From positions 249 to 64,248 of the forward strand of contig JAZULT010000100.1 in assembly GCA_045603225.1 (NCBI GenBank): 64,000 nucleotides of DNA, given 5' to 3'. The stretch comes from Clostridia bacterium. Lineage in GTDB: Bacteria; Bacillota; Clostridia; UBA1381. This document shows, piece by piece, positions 17,516-24,599 of this stretch (the stretch's first letter is position 1; each line of letters starts with the position of its first letter). The position numbers were made by a program, and so were the translations under genes. Below the pieces are notes generated by a model. That model made no database searches and had not been told where the DNA came from. It saw nothing but the letters and a program-made list of their open reading frames with translations.

Positions 17516-17860
17516 TTATTTTACTCCTGCAAAAGAACCGATGACACCGCTTAGTAAACACAAAGTTATAAGTGTATACAAGGAGCCTTCCGGTCGAATA
17601 CCGCCTGTGTTGACTAAAAATAATATTAATAAACCGGAACTAAGCAGTGAAGTGATTATTCCCTTTACTGCTTTTTTGTTGTCTGCGCTTTTTGAAACGA
17701 GTAATGAACCGAAAAAAATACTAAGACAGATAAGTCCCCATACAGAAAACTTTATAATGTTTTGGTTTGGCTCAAAAAACAGACGGACAAAAGATACAGC
17801 CAAAAGTATAATGACGGACAGCATGACTGAAAAAATCATGCCTTTTATGATACCTTTCAT
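17516..17860 (-). CDS. Small integral membrane protein (TIGR04086/YrzE-like)
   Basis: 114 aa with 4 hydrophobic segments. aaaggaggtg RBS on the - strand. Convergent with the MATE gene, with only a 3-nt gap. Confidence 0.65.
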   Translation of the reverse strand: MKGIIKGMIFSVMLSVIILLAVSFVRLFFEPNQNIIKFSVWGLICLSIFFGSLLVSKSADNKKAVKGIITSLLSSGLLILFLVNTGGIRPEGSLYTLITLCLLSGVIGSFAGVK

Positions 17861-17978
17861 CTGAATTCACCTCCTTTTAAAGGATATGTTTAACATTACG
17901 TATTTATGTATTTATTACAAAAAACTTTTCTGTGATAAAAAAATGTTGTCATAAATCCACTTAATTTTAAACCATTAC

Positions 17979-18007
17979 TTGACTAAAGGTGTCAAAAGTG
18001 GTATTAT
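17979..18007 (+). promoter_or_regulatory. Near-consensus sigma-A promoter of the aro operon leader
   Basis: TTGACT (17979-17984), 17 nt spacer, TGgTATTAT (-10 at 18002-18007). Confidence 0.65.
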
Positions 18008-18032
18008 TTTATTAAGAAATGAGGAAAAAAAC

Positions 18033-18116
18033 ATGAGAAATTTAGTCTTTACAGGCGCATATTTTACAGGCTTTTACTTTTATTTTGGTAAAAAGTCCGT
18101 TTGTGTTGCAATGTAA
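18033..18116 (+). CDS. Candidate leader peptide MRNLVFTGAYFTGFYFYFGKKSVCVAM (5 Phe and 3 Tyr within codons 6-18)
   Basis: GAGGA at 18021-18025, 7 nt before the ATG. 27 codons plus TAA. Lies between the promoter and an intrinsic terminator, directly upstream of aroF. Confidence 0.6.
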   Translation: MRNLVFTGAYFTGFYFYFGKKSVCVAM

Positions 18117-18164
18117 AGGTTTTTTATGTACATAGTTATATGAAGGATTACAGGTAACACAAAC
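18099..18164 (+). promoter_or_regulatory. Candidate antiterminator helix (18099-18109 pairs with 18154-18164)
   Basis: GTTTGTGTTGC is complementary to GTAACACAAAC over 11 bp with one G-U pair. The second strand is the top of the terminator 5' arm plus its whole loop. Confidence 0.45.
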
Positions 18165-18185
18165 ATAACCTGTAGTCCTTTTTAA
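18143..18185 (+). terminator. Intrinsic terminator/attenuator in the aro leader
   Basis: 13-bp stem AAGGATTACAGGT / ACCTGTAGTCCTT (one G-U) with a 12-nt loop, followed by TTTTTAATTT. It ends about 30 nt before the aroF ATG. Confidence 0.7.
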
Positions 18186-18211
18186 TTTAATTCAGAAAGG
18201 AAGCGTTAAAA

Positions 18212-19219
18212 ATGATTCTCATTCTTAACAGAGATTACGAAGAACGTCAGTTTAATATGCTGATAAACTGGCTTGAAGCAAAGAATATAGATCCCAGAGT
18301 ATGGAAAGGAACAGAAGAAACCATAGTCGGTCTTATAGGGGATACATCTTCAATTGATACGGATATGCTTGAATCAATGGATATTGTAAACTCAGTAAGA
18401 CGCGTCAGTGAACCGTATAAAAGCAGTAACAGAAAGTTTCATCCTCATGATACGCTGATATGTACAGGAGGAGCAATATTGGGTGACGGAAATTTTGGGA
18501 TAATTGCCGGACCGTGTTCTGTTGAATCTGAGGAGCAGCTTTGCTTGATAGCGGAAAAGGTAAAAACTTCAGGTGCTACATTTTTGCGTGGCGGCGCGTT
18601 TAAACCAAGAACTTCCCCATATGCTTTTCAGGGATTAAGGCAAAAGGGAATAGAGTTGCTGCTTAAAGCTAAAGAAAAAACAGGGCTTCCTATTGTTACA
18701 GAAATTATGGATATATCTCATATACCGCTTTTTGAGGATGTTGATGTTATTCAGGTTGGAGCGAGAAATATGCAGAATTTTGAACTTTTAAAAGAATTAG
18801 GACATCTTGATAAGCCGGTTTTAATAAAAAGAGGTCTTGCCAATACTGTTGATGAACTGTTAATGAGTGCTGAATATATAATGTCCGGAGGAAACGAAAA
18901 AGTAATACTTTGCGAAAGAGGAATAAGGACATTTGAACAAAAAACAAGAAATACCCTGGATTTGTCTGCTGTTCCGCTTCTTAAGTCATTGTCTCATTTG
19001 CCTGTGGTTGTTGATCCGAGCCATGCAACAGGTATCGCTAAACTTGTTGAACCGATGGCTATGGCAGCGACAGCTTGCGGAGCTGACGGACTTATGATAG
19101 AAGTTCATAACGATCCACAAAATGCATCATGTGACGGACAACAATCGCTCACACCGGAGGCTTTTGAGAGATTAGTAAACAAAGTGAAGGAGATTTTACC
19201 GCATGCGTACAAAATATAA
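18212..19219 (+). CDS. aroF: 3-deoxy-7-phosphoheptulonate (DAHP) synthase, type I-beta, with N-terminal ferredoxin-like regulatory domain
   Basis: The KDO8P/DAHPS core carries GPCSVES, RGGAFKPRTSPY and DPSH motifs. A roughly 70-aa N-terminal extension resembles that of Thermotoga-type enzymes. Confidence 0.92.
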   Translation: MILILNRDYEERQFNMLINWLEAKNIDPRVWKGTEETIVGLIGDTSSIDTDMLESMDIVNSVRRVSEPYKSSNRKFHPHDTLICTGGAILGDGNFGIIAGPCSVESEEQLCLIAEKVKTSGATFLRGGAFKPRTSPYAFQGLRQKGIELLLKAKEKTGLPIVTEIMDISHIPLFEDVDVIQVGARNMQNFELLKELGHLDKPVLIKRGLANTVDELLMSAEYIMSGGNEKVILCERGIRTFEQKTRNTLDLSAVPLLKSLSHLPVVVDPSHATGIAKLVEPMAMAATACGADGLMIEVHNDPQNASCDGQQSLTPEAFERLVNKVKEILPHAYKI

Positions 19220-20027
19220 AATAGGAATGATAGGTCTTGGACTTATCGGCGCATCCTTAGCTAAGTCGTTTAAAGAGAATACAGAATGTATTGTAGCCGG
19301 TTATGATATAAATCCGGAAACAATAACAAAAGCAGTAAATGAAGGAGTTATTGATTCTGAAGCTCGTTATGAAGAATGTGATATAATTATTTCAGCTTTA
19401 TACCCTGATGCGACTGTGGACTTTGTAAGAAAGAACTGTCACAAAATTAAAAAAGGTGCACTTGTTCTTGATTGCGGCGGAACTAAAGAACTTGTATGTC
19501 GTGAGTGCTCAAAAATAGCAGAAGAAAACGGTTTTCAATTTGTCGGAATGCATCCTATGGCAGGAACGGAACATTCGGGTTATGATTTTTCTACAGGAGA
19601 TCTTTTCAGAGGGGCATCGCTTATTATTTGTTCAGAAGAAAAACGACCTGAAATAGAAGAACTGTTTGGTAAAATAGGATTTGAAATTTTTCGATATACC
19701 ACGGCTGAAGAACATGACAGAATTATTGCTTTTACTTCACAGCTGGCTCATGTTGTTTCAAATGCATTTGTAAAAAGTCCGCAGTATCCGCTGCATCTCG
19801 GTTACTCAGCAGGCAGTTTGAAGGACTTGACAAGAGTTGCTTGGCTCAATGAAACTATGTGGACTGAATTATTTCTTCAGAATGCTGATAATCTTGCTTT
19901 TGAAATTGATACTATTATAGAAAATCTGAAAAAGTATTCAGATGCGATAAAGACTCATAATGACGGAGAATTGAGACACCTTCTGAAGGAAGGAAGAATG
20001 ATTAAAGAAAAAGTAGATGGGAGATAA
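19203..20027 (+). CDS. tyrA: Prephenate dehydrogenase
   Basis: Rossmann motif IGMIGLGLIG and the catalytic region HPMAG. AAGGAG RBS 10 nt upstream. Overlaps the aroF end by 17 nt. Confidence 0.9.
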   Translation: MRTKYKIGMIGLGLIGASLAKSFKENTECIVAGYDINPETITKAVNEGVIDSEARYEECDIIISALYPDATVDFVRKNCHKIKKGALVLDCGGTKELVCRECSKIAEENGFQFVGMHPMAGTEHSGYDFSTGDLFRGASLIICSEEKRPEIEELFGKIGFEIFRYTTAEEHDRIIAFTSQLAHVVSNAFVKSPQYPLHLGYSAGSLKDLTRVAWLNETMWTELFLQNADNLAFEIDTIIENLKKYSDAIKTHNDGELRHLLKEGRMIKEKVDGR

Positions 20028-20032
20028 CCTGT

Positions 20033-21073
20033 ATGGAAACGATAACTGTAAGTGCATCAATTGAATATGATGTACTGATAGATAATGGTATTATAAATAA
20101 ATGCGGAGAAATGACAGCTAAAGTAATCACTCCATGTAAGGCATGTATAATAACAGATGATAATGTTAAAAAGTACTATCTTGATATTGTCGAAGAATCA
20201 TATAAAAATGCAGGATTTGATGTTATATCGTTCAGTTTTCCTGACGGAGAAAATTCAAAAAATATAAAAACCATAAGTGATATATATGAGTTTCTTGCAG
20301 AAAATCATCTGACACGCTCTGATATTATAATTGCTTTAGGTGGAGGGATTGTTGGAGATACCGCAGGATTTGCCGCAGCAACATATCTGAGAGGTATAAA
20401 ATTTATTCAGATACCGACTACATTTCTTGCAGCAATTGATTCGTCTGTTGGCGGAAAAACAGGAGTGAATTTAAATGCCGGAAAGAATCTTTGTGGTGCA
20501 TTTCATCAGCCGTCGCTTGTAATATGCGATCCTGAATGTTTTAAAACGATGGATAAAGAAAGATACCTTGACGGTACAGCAGAAGCAGTTAAATATGCTG
20601 TGCTTAAAGATGAAAAGATTATAGACTATATCCGGAATGATATAATAAAAACGGTTACAGAATGTGTTAAAATCAAAAGAGATATAGTCTCACATGATGA
20701 GTTTGATACAGGTGAAAGACAGCTTTTGAATCTTGGGCATACTTTAGGACATGCCATTGAAAAACTGAGTGATTTTGAAATCACTCACGGTCATGCGGTA
20801 GCTATAGGAATGGTTCTTATTTCGCAGGCGGGCGAGAAATCCGGAATTACAAAACCGGGAACTGCTGAAAAAATAAAATCAATTCTAAAGGAGGAAGGAC
20901 TTCCTATTTCTTGTAAATATACGGCTGAGGAGCTTTGTGATATTGCACTTAACGATAAAAAAAGAACGGGTGGTACAATAACTCTTGTAATTCCGGATAT
21001 GATAGGAAAATGTGAACTCAGGAAAGTAAAAGTTTCAGAACTATTTGATTTTGTTAAAGGAGGAATTTCATGA
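20033..21073 (+). CDS. aroB: 3-dehydroquinate synthase
   Basis: GGGIVGDTAGFAAATYLRGI nucleotide-binding motif and metal ligands in LNLGHTLGHA...HGHAVA. Confidence 0.95.
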   Translation: METITVSASIEYDVLIDNGIINKCGEMTAKVITPCKACIITDDNVKKYYLDIVEESYKNAGFDVISFSFPDGENSKNIKTISDIYEFLAENHLTRSDIIIALGGGIVGDTAGFAAATYLRGIKFIQIPTTFLAAIDSSVGGKTGVNLNAGKNLCGAFHQPSLVICDPECFKTMDKERYLDGTAEAVKYAVLKDEKIIDYIRNDIIKTVTECVKIKRDIVSHDEFDTGERQLLNLGHTLGHAIEKLSDFEITHGHAVAIGMVLISQAGEKSGITKPGTAEKIKSILKEEGLPISCKYTAEELCDIALNDKKRTGGTITLVIPDMIGKCELRKVKVSELFDFVKGGIS

Positions 21074-22260
21074 TTACAGAAATTTTCCCTTCTATGCTTA
21101 ACGGAACGCTTTCAGCTGTTTCTTCGAAATCGTATGCCCACAGAATAATTGTTGCTTCAATGCTTTCTGATAAAGAAACGAAAATTAAGATAAACGGCTT
21201 TTCTGATGATATAATAGCAACACTTGAATGTATAAAAGCTATTGGCGGGGATTTTTCAATAAACGGGAATACAGTAACAATTTTTCCTGTAAAAGATGTG
21301 AAAGAGGGCACATATGTATATTGTAACGAAAGCGGAACAACTGCGCGTATTATGGTTCCCGTTTGTGCGGCGTTGTGCAAATGTTCAACAGTAGACGGTG
21401 GCGGAAGACTGCCCCAAAGACCTTTTTCAGAAATAGTCCGTGAGCTCAGAAATAACGGTGCAGAGATAGATTCGGATTCTGTTCCGATGAAAATAAGAGG
21501 AAAGATAAAATGCGGAATCTATGAAATTGAAGGGAATATAAGCTCACAGTACATCACAGGACTGCTTCTTGCACTCCCACTTACAGAATCAGACAGTGAA
21601 ATAATATTGAAAACACCTCTTGAATCAGCAGCGTATGTCGATATGACAATAGACGTTCTCGAAAAGTTTGGTATACAAATAAGAAAAACTGACAGAGGAT
21701 ATATTGTACCTTCTTCAAAATATATTTCGCCCGGAGAGATAATCGCTGAGGGGGACTGGTCAAATTCGGCTTTCTGGGTTGTTGCTGACAAGCTGGGTTC
21801 AAAAATCGATATACAGGATATAAACAGCAACTCACGTCAAGGTGATAGAAAGATATGTGATGTTCTTGATGATACTTCGATAGATGTATCTGAAATTCCG
21901 GATTTGTTTCCTATCCTATCTGTACTTGCGGCAGGAAGAAAAGGTGAAACTCTTCTTTATAATGCAAAAAGATTACGTCTTAAAGAAAGTGACAGAATAG
22001 AGTCTACAAACGCTCTACTAAAGTCTTTAGGCTGTAAAACGGAAGTCGGAGAGGACTACCTCAGGATTTTCGGTTCAGGAACACTTGAGGGTGGAATAGT
22101 TGACGGATATAATGACCACAGAATAGTAATGTCAGCGGCTATTGCATCTGTTATTTGTAAAAATAAAGTTGTAATTAAAGGTGCGGAGGCTGTCAATAAG
22201 TCGTATCCGGATTTCTTTAAAGAATTTGAGAGACTGGGAGGAAAAGTTAATGTCATTTAA
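21070..22260 (+). CDS. aroA: 3-phosphoshikimate 1-carboxyvinyltransferase (EPSP synthase)
   Basis: KSYAHR, GTTARI, LKESDR and NDHRIVMS motifs. aaaggagg RBS. ATGA overlap with aroB. Confidence 0.93.
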   Translation: MITEIFPSMLNGTLSAVSSKSYAHRIIVASMLSDKETKIKINGFSDDIIATLECIKAIGGDFSINGNTVTIFPVKDVKEGTYVYCNESGTTARIMVPVCAALCKCSTVDGGGRLPQRPFSEIVRELRNNGAEIDSDSVPMKIRGKIKCGIYEIEGNISSQYITGLLLALPLTESDSEIILKTPLESAAYVDMTIDVLEKFGIQIRKTDRGYIVPSSKYISPGEIIAEGDWSNSAFWVVADKLGSKIDIQDINSNSRQGDRKICDVLDDTSIDVSEIPDLFPILSVLAAGRKGETLLYNAKRLRLKESDRIESTNALLKSLGCKTEVGEDYLRIFGSGTLEGGIVDGYNDHRIVMSAAIASVICKNKVVIKGAEAVNKSYPDFFKEFERLGGKVNVI

Positions 22261-23308
22261 TATAGGTAATTTAACAATAACCGTTGCCGGTGAATCTCAC
22301 AGCTCAGGTCTGACTGTTATACTTGAAGGTATCAAACCCGGAATGGAAATTGACATGGATGAAATATACTCATTTATGCAAAGACGAGCACCCGGGAAAA
22401 ATAGATTTTCTACACCGAGAAAAGAGGCGGATTTGCCTGAAATTCTGTCAGGTGTTAAAAATGGATTTTCAACAGGTTCTGCGATTGCGGCTGTTATAAG
22501 AAATACAAATACCAAAAGTAAGGATTATGGTGATGAACTTGATGTTCTGAGACCGGGACATGCAGATTATCCTGCAAGTGTAAAATTTGGTAAGTATTTT
22601 GATTTTTGTGGTGGAGGACAGTTTTCAGGCAGAATAACAGCTACTCTTTGTTTTGCAGGAGGCATTGCAAAAAGTATTCTGAAAAAAAACGGAATTAATG
22701 TATTGGCTCATATATCCGAAATTCATGGGATAGAAGATAAATCGTACAAAGATACAGTGGTTGATGTTTCAGGTAAAGATTTTCCGGTGATAGATGATGA
22801 ATCGGGAATTAAAATGATGGATGAAATCGATAAAGCTCGTGAAAACCTTGATTCTGTAGGTGGCAAGATAGAATGTGTTGTCGAAGGAGTTCCTGCAGGT
22901 GTGGGGGATTCACTATTTGGCGGACTAGACGGTGAGATTGCTAAAGCGATTTTTGGAATTCCCGCTGTTAAGGGGATAGAATTCGGTGCCGGTTTTGACG
23001 TGTGCGAAATGTATGGCAGCGAAAATAACGATGAGTATTATATGGATAATGATGTGGTTAAAACGAAAACAAATAATCATGGTGGTATACTTGGCGGAAT
23101 TACCACAGGTATGCCGCTTATATTCAATACTGCGTTTAAACCGACACCGTCTATAGCTAAAGAACAGAATTCGGTAAGTCTTAAAAATGGTTCAGATATT
23201 AAATTATCTGTTCACGGTCGTCACGATCCGTGTATTGTTCAACGTGCAGTACCTGTTGTTGAAGCTGTTACTGCTCTTGTTATTCTTGGTAAATTGGGAG
23301 GGGTTTGA
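22250..23308 (+). CDS. aroC: Chorismate synthase
   Basis: AGESHS N-terminal motif, RPGHADY and GRHDPC motifs. The ATG at 22250 follows GGGAGG. The ORF-track start at 22181 lies inside aroA. Confidence 0.93.
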   Translation: MSFNIGNLTITVAGESHSSGLTVILEGIKPGMEIDMDEIYSFMQRRAPGKNRFSTPRKEADLPEILSGVKNGFSTGSAIAAVIRNTNTKSKDYGDELDVLRPGHADYPASVKFGKYFDFCGGGQFSGRITATLCFAGGIAKSILKKNGINVLAHISEIHGIEDKSYKDTVVDVSGKDFPVIDDESGIKMMDEIDKARENLDSVGGKIECVVEGVPAGVGDSLFGGLDGEIAKAIFGIPAVKGIEFGAGFDVCEMYGSENNDEYYMDNDVVKTKTNNHGGILGGITTGMPLIFNTAFKPTPSIAKEQNSVSLKNGSDIKLSVHGRHDPCIVQRAVPVVEAVTALVILGKLGGV

Positions 23309-23310
23309 AA

Positions 23311-24444
23311 ATGGATATGAGTCAGCTCAGAAATCAGATAGATGAAATTGATGATAAAATTGTAGAGCTTTTCAAGGAAAGAATGGAAATTGTGACAGGA
23401 GTTGCAGAATATAAAAAACAAAATAATATGCCGATTTTTCACAGAGGGCGTGAAAGGGATATTATAAACAGGGTCACAAAACAAGTTCCTCATGAAATGG
23501 CTGTATATACGAAAACTTTATATAATACACTTTTTGAAGTAAGCAGAGCTTATCAAAGCAAAAAAATAAATGACACCTCAGAGCTCGCTGAAAAAATTAA
23601 AGAATCGCTTGAAACTACTCCCAAAATCATTCCTCAGAACGCTATTGTAGCCTGTCAGGGTACAGAAGGCGCTTATTCGGAACAGGCGGCAGAAAAACTT
23701 TTTTCAAATCCTTCTGTAATGTATTTTAATAATTTCCGAGGGGTTTTTGAAGCTGTTAATGAAGGAATGTGTAAATACGGTGTACTTCCGGTAGAAAACA
23801 GTATACATGGCTCTGTTACTGAAGTTATAGATCTTATGAGTGAGTATGATTTCAATATAGTACATTCTGTTAAGATTCAGATTAATCATGTCCTTCTGGC
23901 GAAAAAAGGTACAAAGGAAATAAAAGAAATCTTTTCTCACAGACAGGGAATCGGACAGTGTGAAAAATATTTAAAAACACTTAAGGGTGTAAAAATTACA
24001 CCGGTTGAAAATACTGCTGTTGCCGCAAAAATGGTGGCAGAAAGCGAAAGAGATGATGTTGCGTCAATTTCATCACCTCTTTGCGGAGAATTATACGGAT
24101 TACAAATAGTAAAGTCAAACATAAAAGACAGTGATAACAATTATACCAGATTTATATGTATTTCAAAAGATATGGAAGTTTATCCCGGAGCCGATAGAAT
24201 GACTGTTATGCTAAAGCTTAAACATGAACCGGGAAGCTTGTATAATCTGATTTCAAAATTTGCCGCTGTTGGAGTTAATCTTACCAAGATAGAAAGTAGA
24301 CCGATATGCGGTCTGGATTTTGAATTTATGTTTCTACTTGACATGAATATATCCGTATATTCTGATGAAATTATATCACTTTTAACTGACCTTGAGAACA
24401 CTACAGACGGTTTCGTATTCATGGGAGCATATTCCGAAAATTAA
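23311..24444 (+). CDS. pheA: Bifunctional chorismate mutase / prephenate dehydratase (P-protein) with C-terminal ACT domain
   Basis: N-terminal AroQ chorismate mutase helix (LRNQIDEIDDKIVELFKERMEI), PDT domain (ACQGTEGAYSE, PVENSIHGSV), ACT region with ESRP. Confidence 0.9.
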   Translation: MDMSQLRNQIDEIDDKIVELFKERMEIVTGVAEYKKQNNMPIFHRGRERDIINRVTKQVPHEMAVYTKTLYNTLFEVSRAYQSKKINDTSELAEKIKESLETTPKIIPQNAIVACQGTEGAYSEQAAEKLFSNPSVMYFNNFRGVFEAVNEGMCKYGVLPVENSIHGSVTEVIDLMSEYDFNIVHSVKIQINHVLLAKKGTKEIKEIFSHRQGIGQCEKYLKTLKGVKITPVENTAVAAKMVAESERDDVASISSPLCGELYGLQIVKSNIKDSDNNYTRFICISKDMEVYPGADRMTVMLKLKHEPGSLYNLISKFAAVGVNLTKIESRPICGLDFEFMFLLDMNISVYSDEIISLLTDLENTTDGFVFMGAYSEN

Positions 24445-24482
24445 AATTTTATTAAAAAAATAAAAAAAATATAAAAAAAGTA

Positions 24483-24511
24483 TTGATTTTTTTTGAAAAG
24501 TATGATATAAT
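24483..24511 (+). promoter_or_regulatory. Consensus-like sigma-A promoter of the rimP-nusA-infB operon
   Basis: TTGATT (24483-24488), 17 nt spacer, TGaTATAAT (-10 at 24506-24511), preceded by an A-rich UP-like tract. Confidence 0.6.
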
Positions 24512-24537
24512 ATAAATACAGTTAAATAGATGTTGAC

Positions 24538-24567
24538 AAAAGAGTGGGCGGGAGCCCGCTCTTTTCT
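24538..24567 (+). terminator. Terminator-like hairpin inside the rimP-nusA leader
   Basis: AGAGTGGGC-GGGA-GCCCGCTCT (9 bp, one G-U, GC-rich) followed by TTTT. It lies between the promoter and the rimP start. Confidence 0.5.
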
Positions 24568-24599
24568 ACAGTTAAGAAAGAAAGGATGTGTAGCTGACA

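Follow-up and report, generated by a model that had tools for sequence, protein, structure and literature searches.

The window analysed here, a stretch of DNA of 64,000 nucleotides from a Clostridia bacterium, carries an operon for the synthesis of aromatic amino acids and, upstream of its first gene, a short ORF crowded with Phe and Tyr codons. The locus raises the question of whether the ORF and the RNA around it control the operon and, if so, by what kind of switch. Our analysis indicates that the leader is very probably a ribosome-mediated (leader-peptide) attenuator, which would sense charged tRNA-Phe and tRNA-Tyr and most likely turn on the operon when these two amino acids are in short supply.

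The operon under putative control spans 18212-24444 on the + strand. Its genes, identified by NCBIfam matches and all encoded on the + strand, are aroF (18212-19219), tyrA (19203-20027), aroB (20033-21073), aroA (21070-22260), aroC (about 22181-23308) and pheA (23305-24444), the last encoding a chorismate mutase / prephenate dehydratase fusion. By this annotation the operon includes both tyrA and pheA and is devoid of trp genes. The order aroF-tyrA-aroB is also seen in relatives. The rimP-nusA genes lie downstream of the operon, and the upstream neighbours are a divergent gene for a TIGR04086/DUF3792 membrane protein and a gene for a MATE transporter.

A promoter and a Phe/Tyr-rich leader ORF upstream of aroF

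The sigma-70-type promoter (17979-18007, + strand) consists of the -35 element TTGACT (17979-17984), a 17-nt spacer and the extended -10 element TGgTATTAT. Our pattern scanner scored it at 10 out of 12, with the extended -10 TG, and the -35 and extended -10 elements are kept in five distinct close relatives (alignment A1). This arrangement would place the start of transcription near 18014. The Shine-Dalgarno sequence GAGGA (18021-18025, + strand) is found 7 nt before the ATG at 18033, which opens an ORF of 27 codons plus the UAA stop (18033-18116, + strand). As read from the sequence, and in keeping with the peptides of its relatives described below, the ORF encodes MRNLVFTGAYFTGFYFYFGKKSVCVAM. 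The Phe residues are specified by codons 6, 11, 14, 16 and 18, and the Tyr residues by codons 10, 15 and 17. The resulting run of 5 Phe and 3 Tyr in 13 codons (18048-18086, + strand) is the putative stalling zone. Re-reading the sequence placed the promoter, the GAGGA and the ORF at 18033-18116 just where the original prediction had located them, and it returned the same eight Phe/Tyr codons among codons 6-18.

The statistical weight of the run at a single locus is limited. In 5000 dinucleotide-preserving shuffles of the intergenic region, an ATG ORF that reached 8 or more aromatic residues within 13 codons arose with a probability of 0.0016; the value is no lower than this in an intergenic region that is T-rich, where Phe and Tyr codons come cheap. 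A scan for biased mini-ORFs in the other six intergenic gaps of the window found none.

Alternative structures of the leader RNA

The leader ORF is followed by an intrinsic terminator (18143-18188, + strand), recognized from its inverted repeat, from folding and from its relatives. The stem (18143-18155 / 18168-18180) has 13 pairs, including one G-U, and encloses a 12-nt loop; RNAfold gives the hairpin a free energy of -19.0 kcal/mol (z = -5.9). A simple terminator scanner missed it because the 12-nt loop exceeds the scanner limit of 8, and terminators were located by a purpose-written hairpin search and RNAfold. The T tract TTTTTAATTT (18179-18188, + strand) overlaps the base of the stem. The hairpin is thus the 13-bp structure that had been predicted, with two adjustments: the gap from the stop codon is 26 nt instead of 27, and the T run that was to follow the hairpin starts at 18179, such that its first two T are the last two positions of the stem.

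Three segments of the leader, referred to as regions 1 to 3, have more than one possible partner. Region 1 (18031-18078, + strand) is the 5' strand of an anti-antiterminator, contains two copies of TTTACAGGC, and overlaps the leader start and the Phe/Tyr run. In the minimum-free-energy fold it pairs with 18087-18129 (-26.6 kcal/mol). Region 2 (18099-18125, + strand) is the switching strand, which pairs with either region 1 or region 3. It takes in the end of the leader coding sequence with its stop codon, continues for 9 nt beyond, and contains the family motif TTTGTGTTGC. Region 3 (18142-18164, + strand) comprises the terminator 5' arm and most of the loop, and pairs with either region 2 or the 3' arm, region 4. 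The antiterminator formed by regions 2 and 3 (18099-18125 / 18142-18164) has a free energy of -24.6 kcal/mol (z = -5.7). Its core (18099-18107 / 18156-18164) is 100% complementary, and flanking G-U and C-G pairs extend it to 11 bp. When 18097-18184 was folded alone, the antiterminator formed and the terminator was absent, whereas the fold of the full leader contained the long 1:2 hairpin (18031-18129) together with the terminator (-46.4 kcal/mol, z = -4.8).

The original prediction had paired 18099-18109 with 18154-18164 over 11 bp and had the two structures compete for the top of the terminator 5' arm and the loop. This pairing is present, but the actual helix is far longer; terminator and antiterminator do exclude one another by way of a shared strand, which includes the whole 5' arm and not merely its top and the loop. 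It also held the sequence TTACAGG to occur three times, each copy a potential partner of the terminator 3' arm. A direct-repeat search confirms the count (18049, 18064 and 18148) and the folds suggest other partners. In the full-leader fold the first TTTACAGGC copy pairs with TGTAAAG; in the RNAalifold consensus of the close relatives, GCAATGTAAA of region 2 is the partner of the second TTTACAGGC; and in the antiterminator the third copy, in the 5' arm, pairs with the same TGTA. The TTACAGG copies therefore make better sense as alternatives that each pair with the UGUAAAG / GCAAUGUAAA segment of region 2, and regions 1 and 3 accordingly mimic each other. The triple repeat is the footprint of the competition of regions 1 and 3 for region 2. 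By these folds the leader encodes all three states of a trp-type attenuator, with the 1:2 helix completing the four-segment design.

Ribosome position and the choice between structures

For the ribosome we assumed a footprint that extends, counted from the first base of the codon in the A site, 15 nt upstream and 12 nt downstream. With this assumed footprint, a ribosome with the UAA in the A site would cover about 18099-18126, that is, region 2. At the last Phe codon it would reach to about 18096 and leave region 2 free. The last Phe codon is followed 13 nt later by region 2, whose 5' end lies 15 nt ahead of the stop codon. The geometry fits both of the events originally proposed, the masking of 18099-18109 by a ribosome at the UAA (18114) and the freeing of this pairing segment by a stall on the Phe/Tyr run.

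Folding with ribosome-blocked segments, the check suggested along with the prediction, gave a result that depended on the transcript used. Full-length equilibrium folding did not discriminate: the terminator dominated in most family members under every ribosome mask and, in the window, for stalls at the last four Phe/Tyr codons. These masks were replaced by transcripts cut before the 3' arm. In the cut transcripts the 5' arm was 93% paired with the ribosome stalled at any Phe/Tyr codon, compared to 42% with the ribosome at the stop codon, and it was more paired with the stalled ribosome than with the one at the stop codon in 54 of 64 loci (p = 3e-8). As the terminator often prevails at equilibrium, the choice would have to be kinetic, which is also how other attenuators work. 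Relative to region 2, the stop codon lies anywhere from about -66 to +20 nt across the family, so that for some members it is less convincing than for others that a terminating ribosome masks the region.

Recurrence of the leader across Clostridia

A search for AroF in one genome per GTDB species gave 80 loci at 61-69% identity. A leader was called when an ATG ORF at most 300 nt upstream of aroF held at least six Phe/Tyr/Trp residues in 13 codons. Such an ORF was present on the coding strand in 63 of the 79 genome loci with enough upstream sequence, compared to 1 of 79 on the reverse strand; the mean best score of the shuffles was 2.3. The peptides MKTLNFAAEYFYFSFYFTKSKACFTAEK and MSLFVFAAAYFYFYFIMSQSKSDLCCK are examples. 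The ORF was found in 61 of 93 further loci, which were metagenome loci and close relatives. The bins in which the family turned up, more than 120 times, carry the labels Oscillospiraceae, Christensenellaceae, Lachnospiraceae, Anaerovoracaceae and others. Several seemingly leaderless loci have a non-ATG or more distant leader, and in others aroF abuts the upstream gene; among the leaderless loci inspected, those in bins labelled Spirochaetales, Victivallaceae and Bacteroidaceae had no leader.

In the AroF scans of genome and metagenome contigs, identities went no higher than 69%. The close relatives, with AroF at 75-95% identity, came from the protein database, and their contigs were fetched and aligned. 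Their leader peptides are MRNFVFTGAYFTGFYFYFGKKSVCVAM, MKSFSFTGKYFFSGFYYFSKKPVCVAM, MKLSVFTGAYFYGFYYYFKSLICVA and similar. The closest named AroF proteins (69-71% identity) are those of Ihubacter, Zhenpiania, Anaerovorax and Sinanaerobacter, genera that we take to be Anaerovoracaceae and in whose vicinity these identities put the window. The contig with the AroF named for the cultured Ihubacter massiliensis has the same three structures. In the related loci examined, the leader ORF had been left uncalled by gene callers.

The composition of the leaders points to two amino acids. The runs of the family contain 283 Phe, 229 Tyr and a single Trp codon, and both synonymous codons are used for Phe as well as for Tyr, TAC and TAT each being frequent. 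A leader has on average 5.3 Phe, 3.8 Tyr and 0.05 Trp, and at least two Phe and at least two Tyr are found in 62 of 64. This composition matches an operon with tyrA and pheA and no trp genes, and it agrees with the mixed Phe/Tyr sensor that had been proposed from the operon content. When the downstream genes of Tyr-only and Phe-only leaders were compared, tyrA was found to follow both kinds. An SD-like tetramer precedes the in-frame ATG in 62 of 64 leaders, compared to 18% of random ATGs. The usual distance from the last Phe/Tyr codon to the start of region 2 is about 16 nt.

A terminator, with a stem of 7-16 bp and a T run, is located 13-64 nt past the stop codon in all 64 analysed leaders. 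Such a strong stem with a T run in every member is the signature of intrinsic termination, and it argues against a reading in which the leader peptide does sense the amino acids, but the output is translational control or mRNA stability, exerted through the aroF ribosome-binding site. This reading could draw on two stretches of the window that are partly complementary to 18176-18188 (3' arm and U tract), namely 18189-18201, the SD region of aroF (77%), and 18206-18215. Sequestration of the SD sequence cannot, however, be general, because the distance from the terminator to aroF varies from 14 to 131 nt across the family. We consider an output of this kind very unlikely.

Locus-specific pairing and the constraint on the RNA

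To score the 2:3 duplex of a locus, we paired the segment 3' of the Phe/Tyr run with the terminator 5' arm and loop and kept the most stable duplex. Its mean free energy was -14.7 kcal/mol when both strands came from the same locus, compared to -10.8 kcal/mol across loci (z = -11.6, reached by 0 of 5000 permutations). The corresponding cross-locus permutation for the 1:2 duplex gave -19.0 and -13.7 kcal/mol, respectively (z = -13.5). Against composition-matched shuffles the mean z was -2.25 for 2:3 and -2.45 for 1:2, with p <= 0.05 in 37 and 41 of the 64 loci, respectively; the 2:3 duplex of the window had z = -4.86. The helices are locus-specific.

As the original prediction had suggested, we also aligned the regions upstream of aroF in the relatives; the Phe/Tyr run is kept, and compensatory changes are seen in both the terminator and the antiterminator. 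Among the close relatives, 91% of the cells of the terminator are paired and 9 pairs have changed on both sides. For the antiterminator, 88% of the cells are paired and 6 pairs have changed on both sides (for example U-A to A-U at 18102 / 18161 in L167), values that 0 of 500 shuffles match on any measure. The 1:2 helix is 76% paired, and 91 of 500 shuffles reach its observed number of double changes; its column-wise covariation among the close relatives is weak.

The motif TTTGYGYTGC of region 2 (18100-18109 in the window) occurs in 26 of 64 leaders, compared to 0.6% of shuffles. It sits in frame 0, 1 or 2 of the ORF, and past the stop codon in 9 loci. This independence of frame implies that what constrains the C-terminal part of the peptide is its role as a pairing strand, whereas the constraint on the Phe/Tyr run acts in frame. 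From the subfamily of the window alone we built a covariance model. It has one match in the window and, in 27 of 80 distant genome loci, recovers the element immediately 5' of aroF on the coding strand (E < 0.01). The leader element is one detectable family.

Known leader types and other readings

No Rfam 15 family reached its gathering score anywhere in the 64 kb. Within 17850-18260 there was no T-box match even at E values up to 10, and there was none in 36 related loci; a T-box riboswitch would have a Stem I with a specifier loop and a T-box sequence, both of which are absent. The Rfam models Phe_leader and Leu/phe leader (RF01743) stayed below the gathering score in the window and in the relatives. 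A TRAP site is defined by 9-11 (G/U)AG triplets spaced 2-3 nt apart; the five triplets of the leader are scattered and form no properly spaced chain longer than 1. The T-box, TRAP and every Rfam 15 family are excluded, and both the Rfam search and the triplet count uphold the earlier statement that T-box motif and TRAP-type repeats are missing. The best Rfam match in 17850-18260 was the trpB motif, at 24 bits compared to a gathering score of 59 (E = 0.35), which is sub-threshold noise.

These searches bear on a second reading, in which the leader is a riboregulator bound by a factor. The factor, whether protein, uncharged tRNA or small molecule, would recognize TTTGYGYTGC together with the CCGCAGTGA-type arm and choose between terminator and antiterminator, and the Phe/Tyr ORF would be no more than a by-product of U/A-rich sequence. 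Amino-acid operons of Firmicutes are more commonly under T-box or protein-mediated leaders than under leader peptides (PMC2965389, PMC1262725), and a bound factor would suit a conservation that is in part at the RNA level and frame-independent, in an element detectable as a family by sequence plus structure. The frame-independent motif is, however, fully explained as a shared pairing strand, and the Rfam and TRAP results leave such a riboregulator no counterpart among the leaders searched for. Moreover, the aromatic run is always in frame with an ATG, in most cases behind an SD sequence, it is confined almost entirely to the coding strand, it draws on synonymous Tyr and Phe codons, and it lies at ribosome-footprint distance from region 2. 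An in-frame, strand-specific run of synonymous codons is not expected of a non-coding motif and counts against the riboregulator, which we hold to be highly improbable. A third reading dispenses with the sensing of amino acids: the product of the ORF would be a small hydrophobic peptide that acts in its own right, and the hairpin would terminate or insulate constitutively. This is extremely unlikely: the leader peptide is hydrophobic, and trans-acting leader peptides such as peTrpL are known (PMC7298713), but its length (14-43 aa or more) and its sequence outside the Phe/Tyr run vary widely, its C-terminal part is constrained at the nucleotide and not the amino-acid level, the element is tied to aroF across families, and the locus-specific antiterminator and anti-antiterminator pairings would be left without a role.

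A model for the control of the aro operon

The leader-peptide attenuator survived every computational test that was run and is the reading that these results support. The features by which such an attenuator is recognized are all found in the leader: an ORF with an SD sequence and a start codon, a cluster of cognate codons, a terminator, a mutually exclusive antiterminator, a 1:2 helix, and the spacing that a ribosome would require. From these we infer the translation of the ORF, the stalling of the ribosome, its timing relative to the polymerase and the physiological response.

In the model, a ribosome would load at the GAGGA/ATG and translate the 27-codon leader while RNA polymerase moves ahead. 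With Phe and Tyr plentiful, the ribosome would reach the UAA (18114) and cover region 2. Region 3 would be free to pair with region 4 as it emerges, and the 13-bp hairpin with its U tract would end transcription, with a leader RNA of about 170 nt as the product. With Phe-tRNA or Tyr-tRNA scarce, the ribosome would stall within 18048-18086 and mask region 1; region 2, which lies 13 nt beyond the last Phe codon, would for that reason stay free during the stall. It would form the antiterminator with region 3 before region 4 is made, and the polymerase would read through into aroF-tyrA-aroB-aroA-aroC-pheA. When the leader is not translated at all, region 1 would pair with region 2 and the terminator would form.

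The recurrence of the element invites a broader proposal, for and against which we see roughly even chances. The leader would represent a large, uncatalogued Clostridial RNA/peptide family, and in gut Clostridia the common aromatic pathway would be switched mainly by leader-peptide attenuation and not by the T-box. One and the same sensor would respond to two amino acids, and the natural Tyr-only and Phe-only variants would hint at a tunable input. The family adds a widespread and well-supported case of ribosome-mediated attenuation in Clostridia, where T-box control of amino-acid operons is usually assumed. It predicts how many uncultured gut anaerobes set the flux of Phe and Tyr synthesis, with a bearing on the aromatic metabolites of the gut, and it would offer a compact natural two-input (Phe and Tyr) sensor to Clostridial synthetic biology. 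It also brings to light a short ORF that gene callers passed over in the related loci inspected, and an RNA family that is missing from Rfam 15. The carriers include the cultured Ihubacter massiliensis (L176) and Angelakisella massiliensis (L005), in which the prediction is directly testable.

Comparison with known systems

The closest precedents of the Clostridial leader are aroR of Corynebacterium glutamicum, uORFC-13-1 of Acholeplasma and pheL of E. coli. The aroR leader peptide of C. glutamicum is a Phe/Tyr leader peptide that precedes aroF, as shown experimentally (Neshat et al. 2014, summarised in PMC11802643). Ribosome stalling under Phe limitation raises transcription there, whereas Tyr was reported to have no effect (PMC11802643). 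In both systems a leader peptide with Phe/Tyr codons stands before a DAHP synthase operon. However, aroR is actinobacterial and has only a Phe-Tyr-Phe cluster, whereas the Clostridial element has 6-10 Phe/Tyr codons with roughly equal weight on each amino acid. An independent origin of aroR and its presumed Clostridial counterpart is considered more likely. The candidate uORFC-13-1 (Brewer et al. 2021, PMC8632094) combines an RBS, a start codon and a Phe-coding U run immediately 5' of an intrinsic terminator; it is found only upstream of aroF, in Acholeplasma and in unassigned environmental sequences, with 24 representatives. Judged by its published description alone, it resembles the Clostridial leader in its setting, a Firmicutes-related lineage and a position 5' of aroF, and in having both Phe codons in the uORF and a terminator; it differs in having at least one Phe codon with no emphasis on Tyr.

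Ribosome-mediated attenuation is also known from other Firmicutes, a phylum in which T-boxes are the rule. Examples are the Leu/phe leader (RF01743) in Lactococcus (PMC2864571), the His leader peptides in Bacilli (PMC2965389) and the reported Leu-rich attenuator peptide of ilv-leu in S. aureus (PMC5794164). These leaders share the mechanism proposed here and serve other amino acids, operons and lineages. The T-boxes of aromatic genes in Firmicutes resemble the Clostridial leader in their position, in opposing a terminator to an antiterminator and in reporting on tRNA charging. The T-box, however, senses uncharged tRNA directly, via Stem I and the T-box sequence, and the Clostridial leader has neither of these.

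The four-segment logic is also that of pheL-pheA and trpL of E. coli, in which the segments pair as 1:2, 2:3 and 3:4, with the codons in segment 1 and the stop codon adjoining segment 2. Those leaders are proteobacterial and respond to a single amino acid each, whereas here one sensor would integrate Phe and Tyr and control the common pathway together with both branches. A full-text search of a limited literature collection returned no description of a Clostridial Phe/Tyr leader of aroF. The logic of the switch is that of the textbook (trpL, pheL); what sets the Clostridial leader apart is how broad the family is within a T-box-dominated class, that it takes two amino acids as input, and that the catalogues lack it.

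Possible single-amino-acid variants of the leader

Family members upstream of aroF in other Clostridia differ in the aromatic codons that they carry. Tyr-rich leaders, with essentially Tyr codons only, lie upstream of aroF at loci L071, L028 and L041 (for example, the peptides MSSSRFGYYYYYVLCSLCRA and MLMARYAYYYVLYGKCRA), while Phe-only leaders precede the gene at L093 and L100 (for example, …REFFFFFSF and …AAVFFFFFGFFFF). The codon content of these peptides suggests that they are single-input variants of the family, perhaps linked to DAHP synthase isozymes. Comparison of the genes downstream of the Tyr-rich and the Phe-only leaders revealed no clear pattern, and tyrA is found downstream of one Phe-only and of one mixed leader alike. 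Among the public gene calls that accompany the related contigs L161-L176, none corresponds to the leader ORF; the one possible exception is a truncated call of 28 aa where L171 ends.

RNA-model matches and the surroundings of the operon

The trpB ncRNA motif (RF04312) matched 18105-18189 at 24 bits (E = 0.35), short of its Rfam gathering score of 59, with the terminator as the main contributor, and the match was treated as chance. R1, the covariance model built only from the window's leader subfamily, gave extra weak matches away from the aroF leader in two related loci: L012:1723-1891 (+), E = 0.39, approximately 250 nt upstream of that locus's true leader, and L050:1278-1392 (-), E = 0.38. 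Both are probably noise. In the terminator 3' arm and T tract, 18176-18188 is partly complementary to the aroF ribosome-binding region (18189-18201; 77%) and to 18206-18215 (90%); nothing in the analysis points to a role for this complementarity.

Upstream of the leader, a divergent gene on the minus strand (17516-17860) encodes a TIGR04086/DUF3792 membrane protein of 114 aa, and its position is kept in relatives (L161-L173) down to 75% AroF identity. At the other end, the pheA-rimP gap (24445-24599) holds a promoter-like site at 24483-24511, with TG and a score of 10 of 12, and at 24546-24561 a short GC-rich hairpin that has a T run. It is possible that rimP-nusA is transcribed separately from the aro operon and that a leader structure precedes rimP.

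Operon content and the AroF enzyme

The operon (18212-24444) comprises aroF, tyrA, aroB, aroA, aroC and pheA. No genes for dehydroquinase, shikimate dehydrogenase or shikimate kinase were found within it; these three must therefore be located elsewhere, beyond the direct control of the attenuator. AroF (18212-19219) and its homologues carry an N-terminal PF18152 (DAHP_snth_FXD) domain. In related DAHP synthases, allosteric feedback runs through this ferredoxin-like domain, and thus the aromatic amino acids may control the pathway twice, at the level of the enzyme and at that of the transcript.
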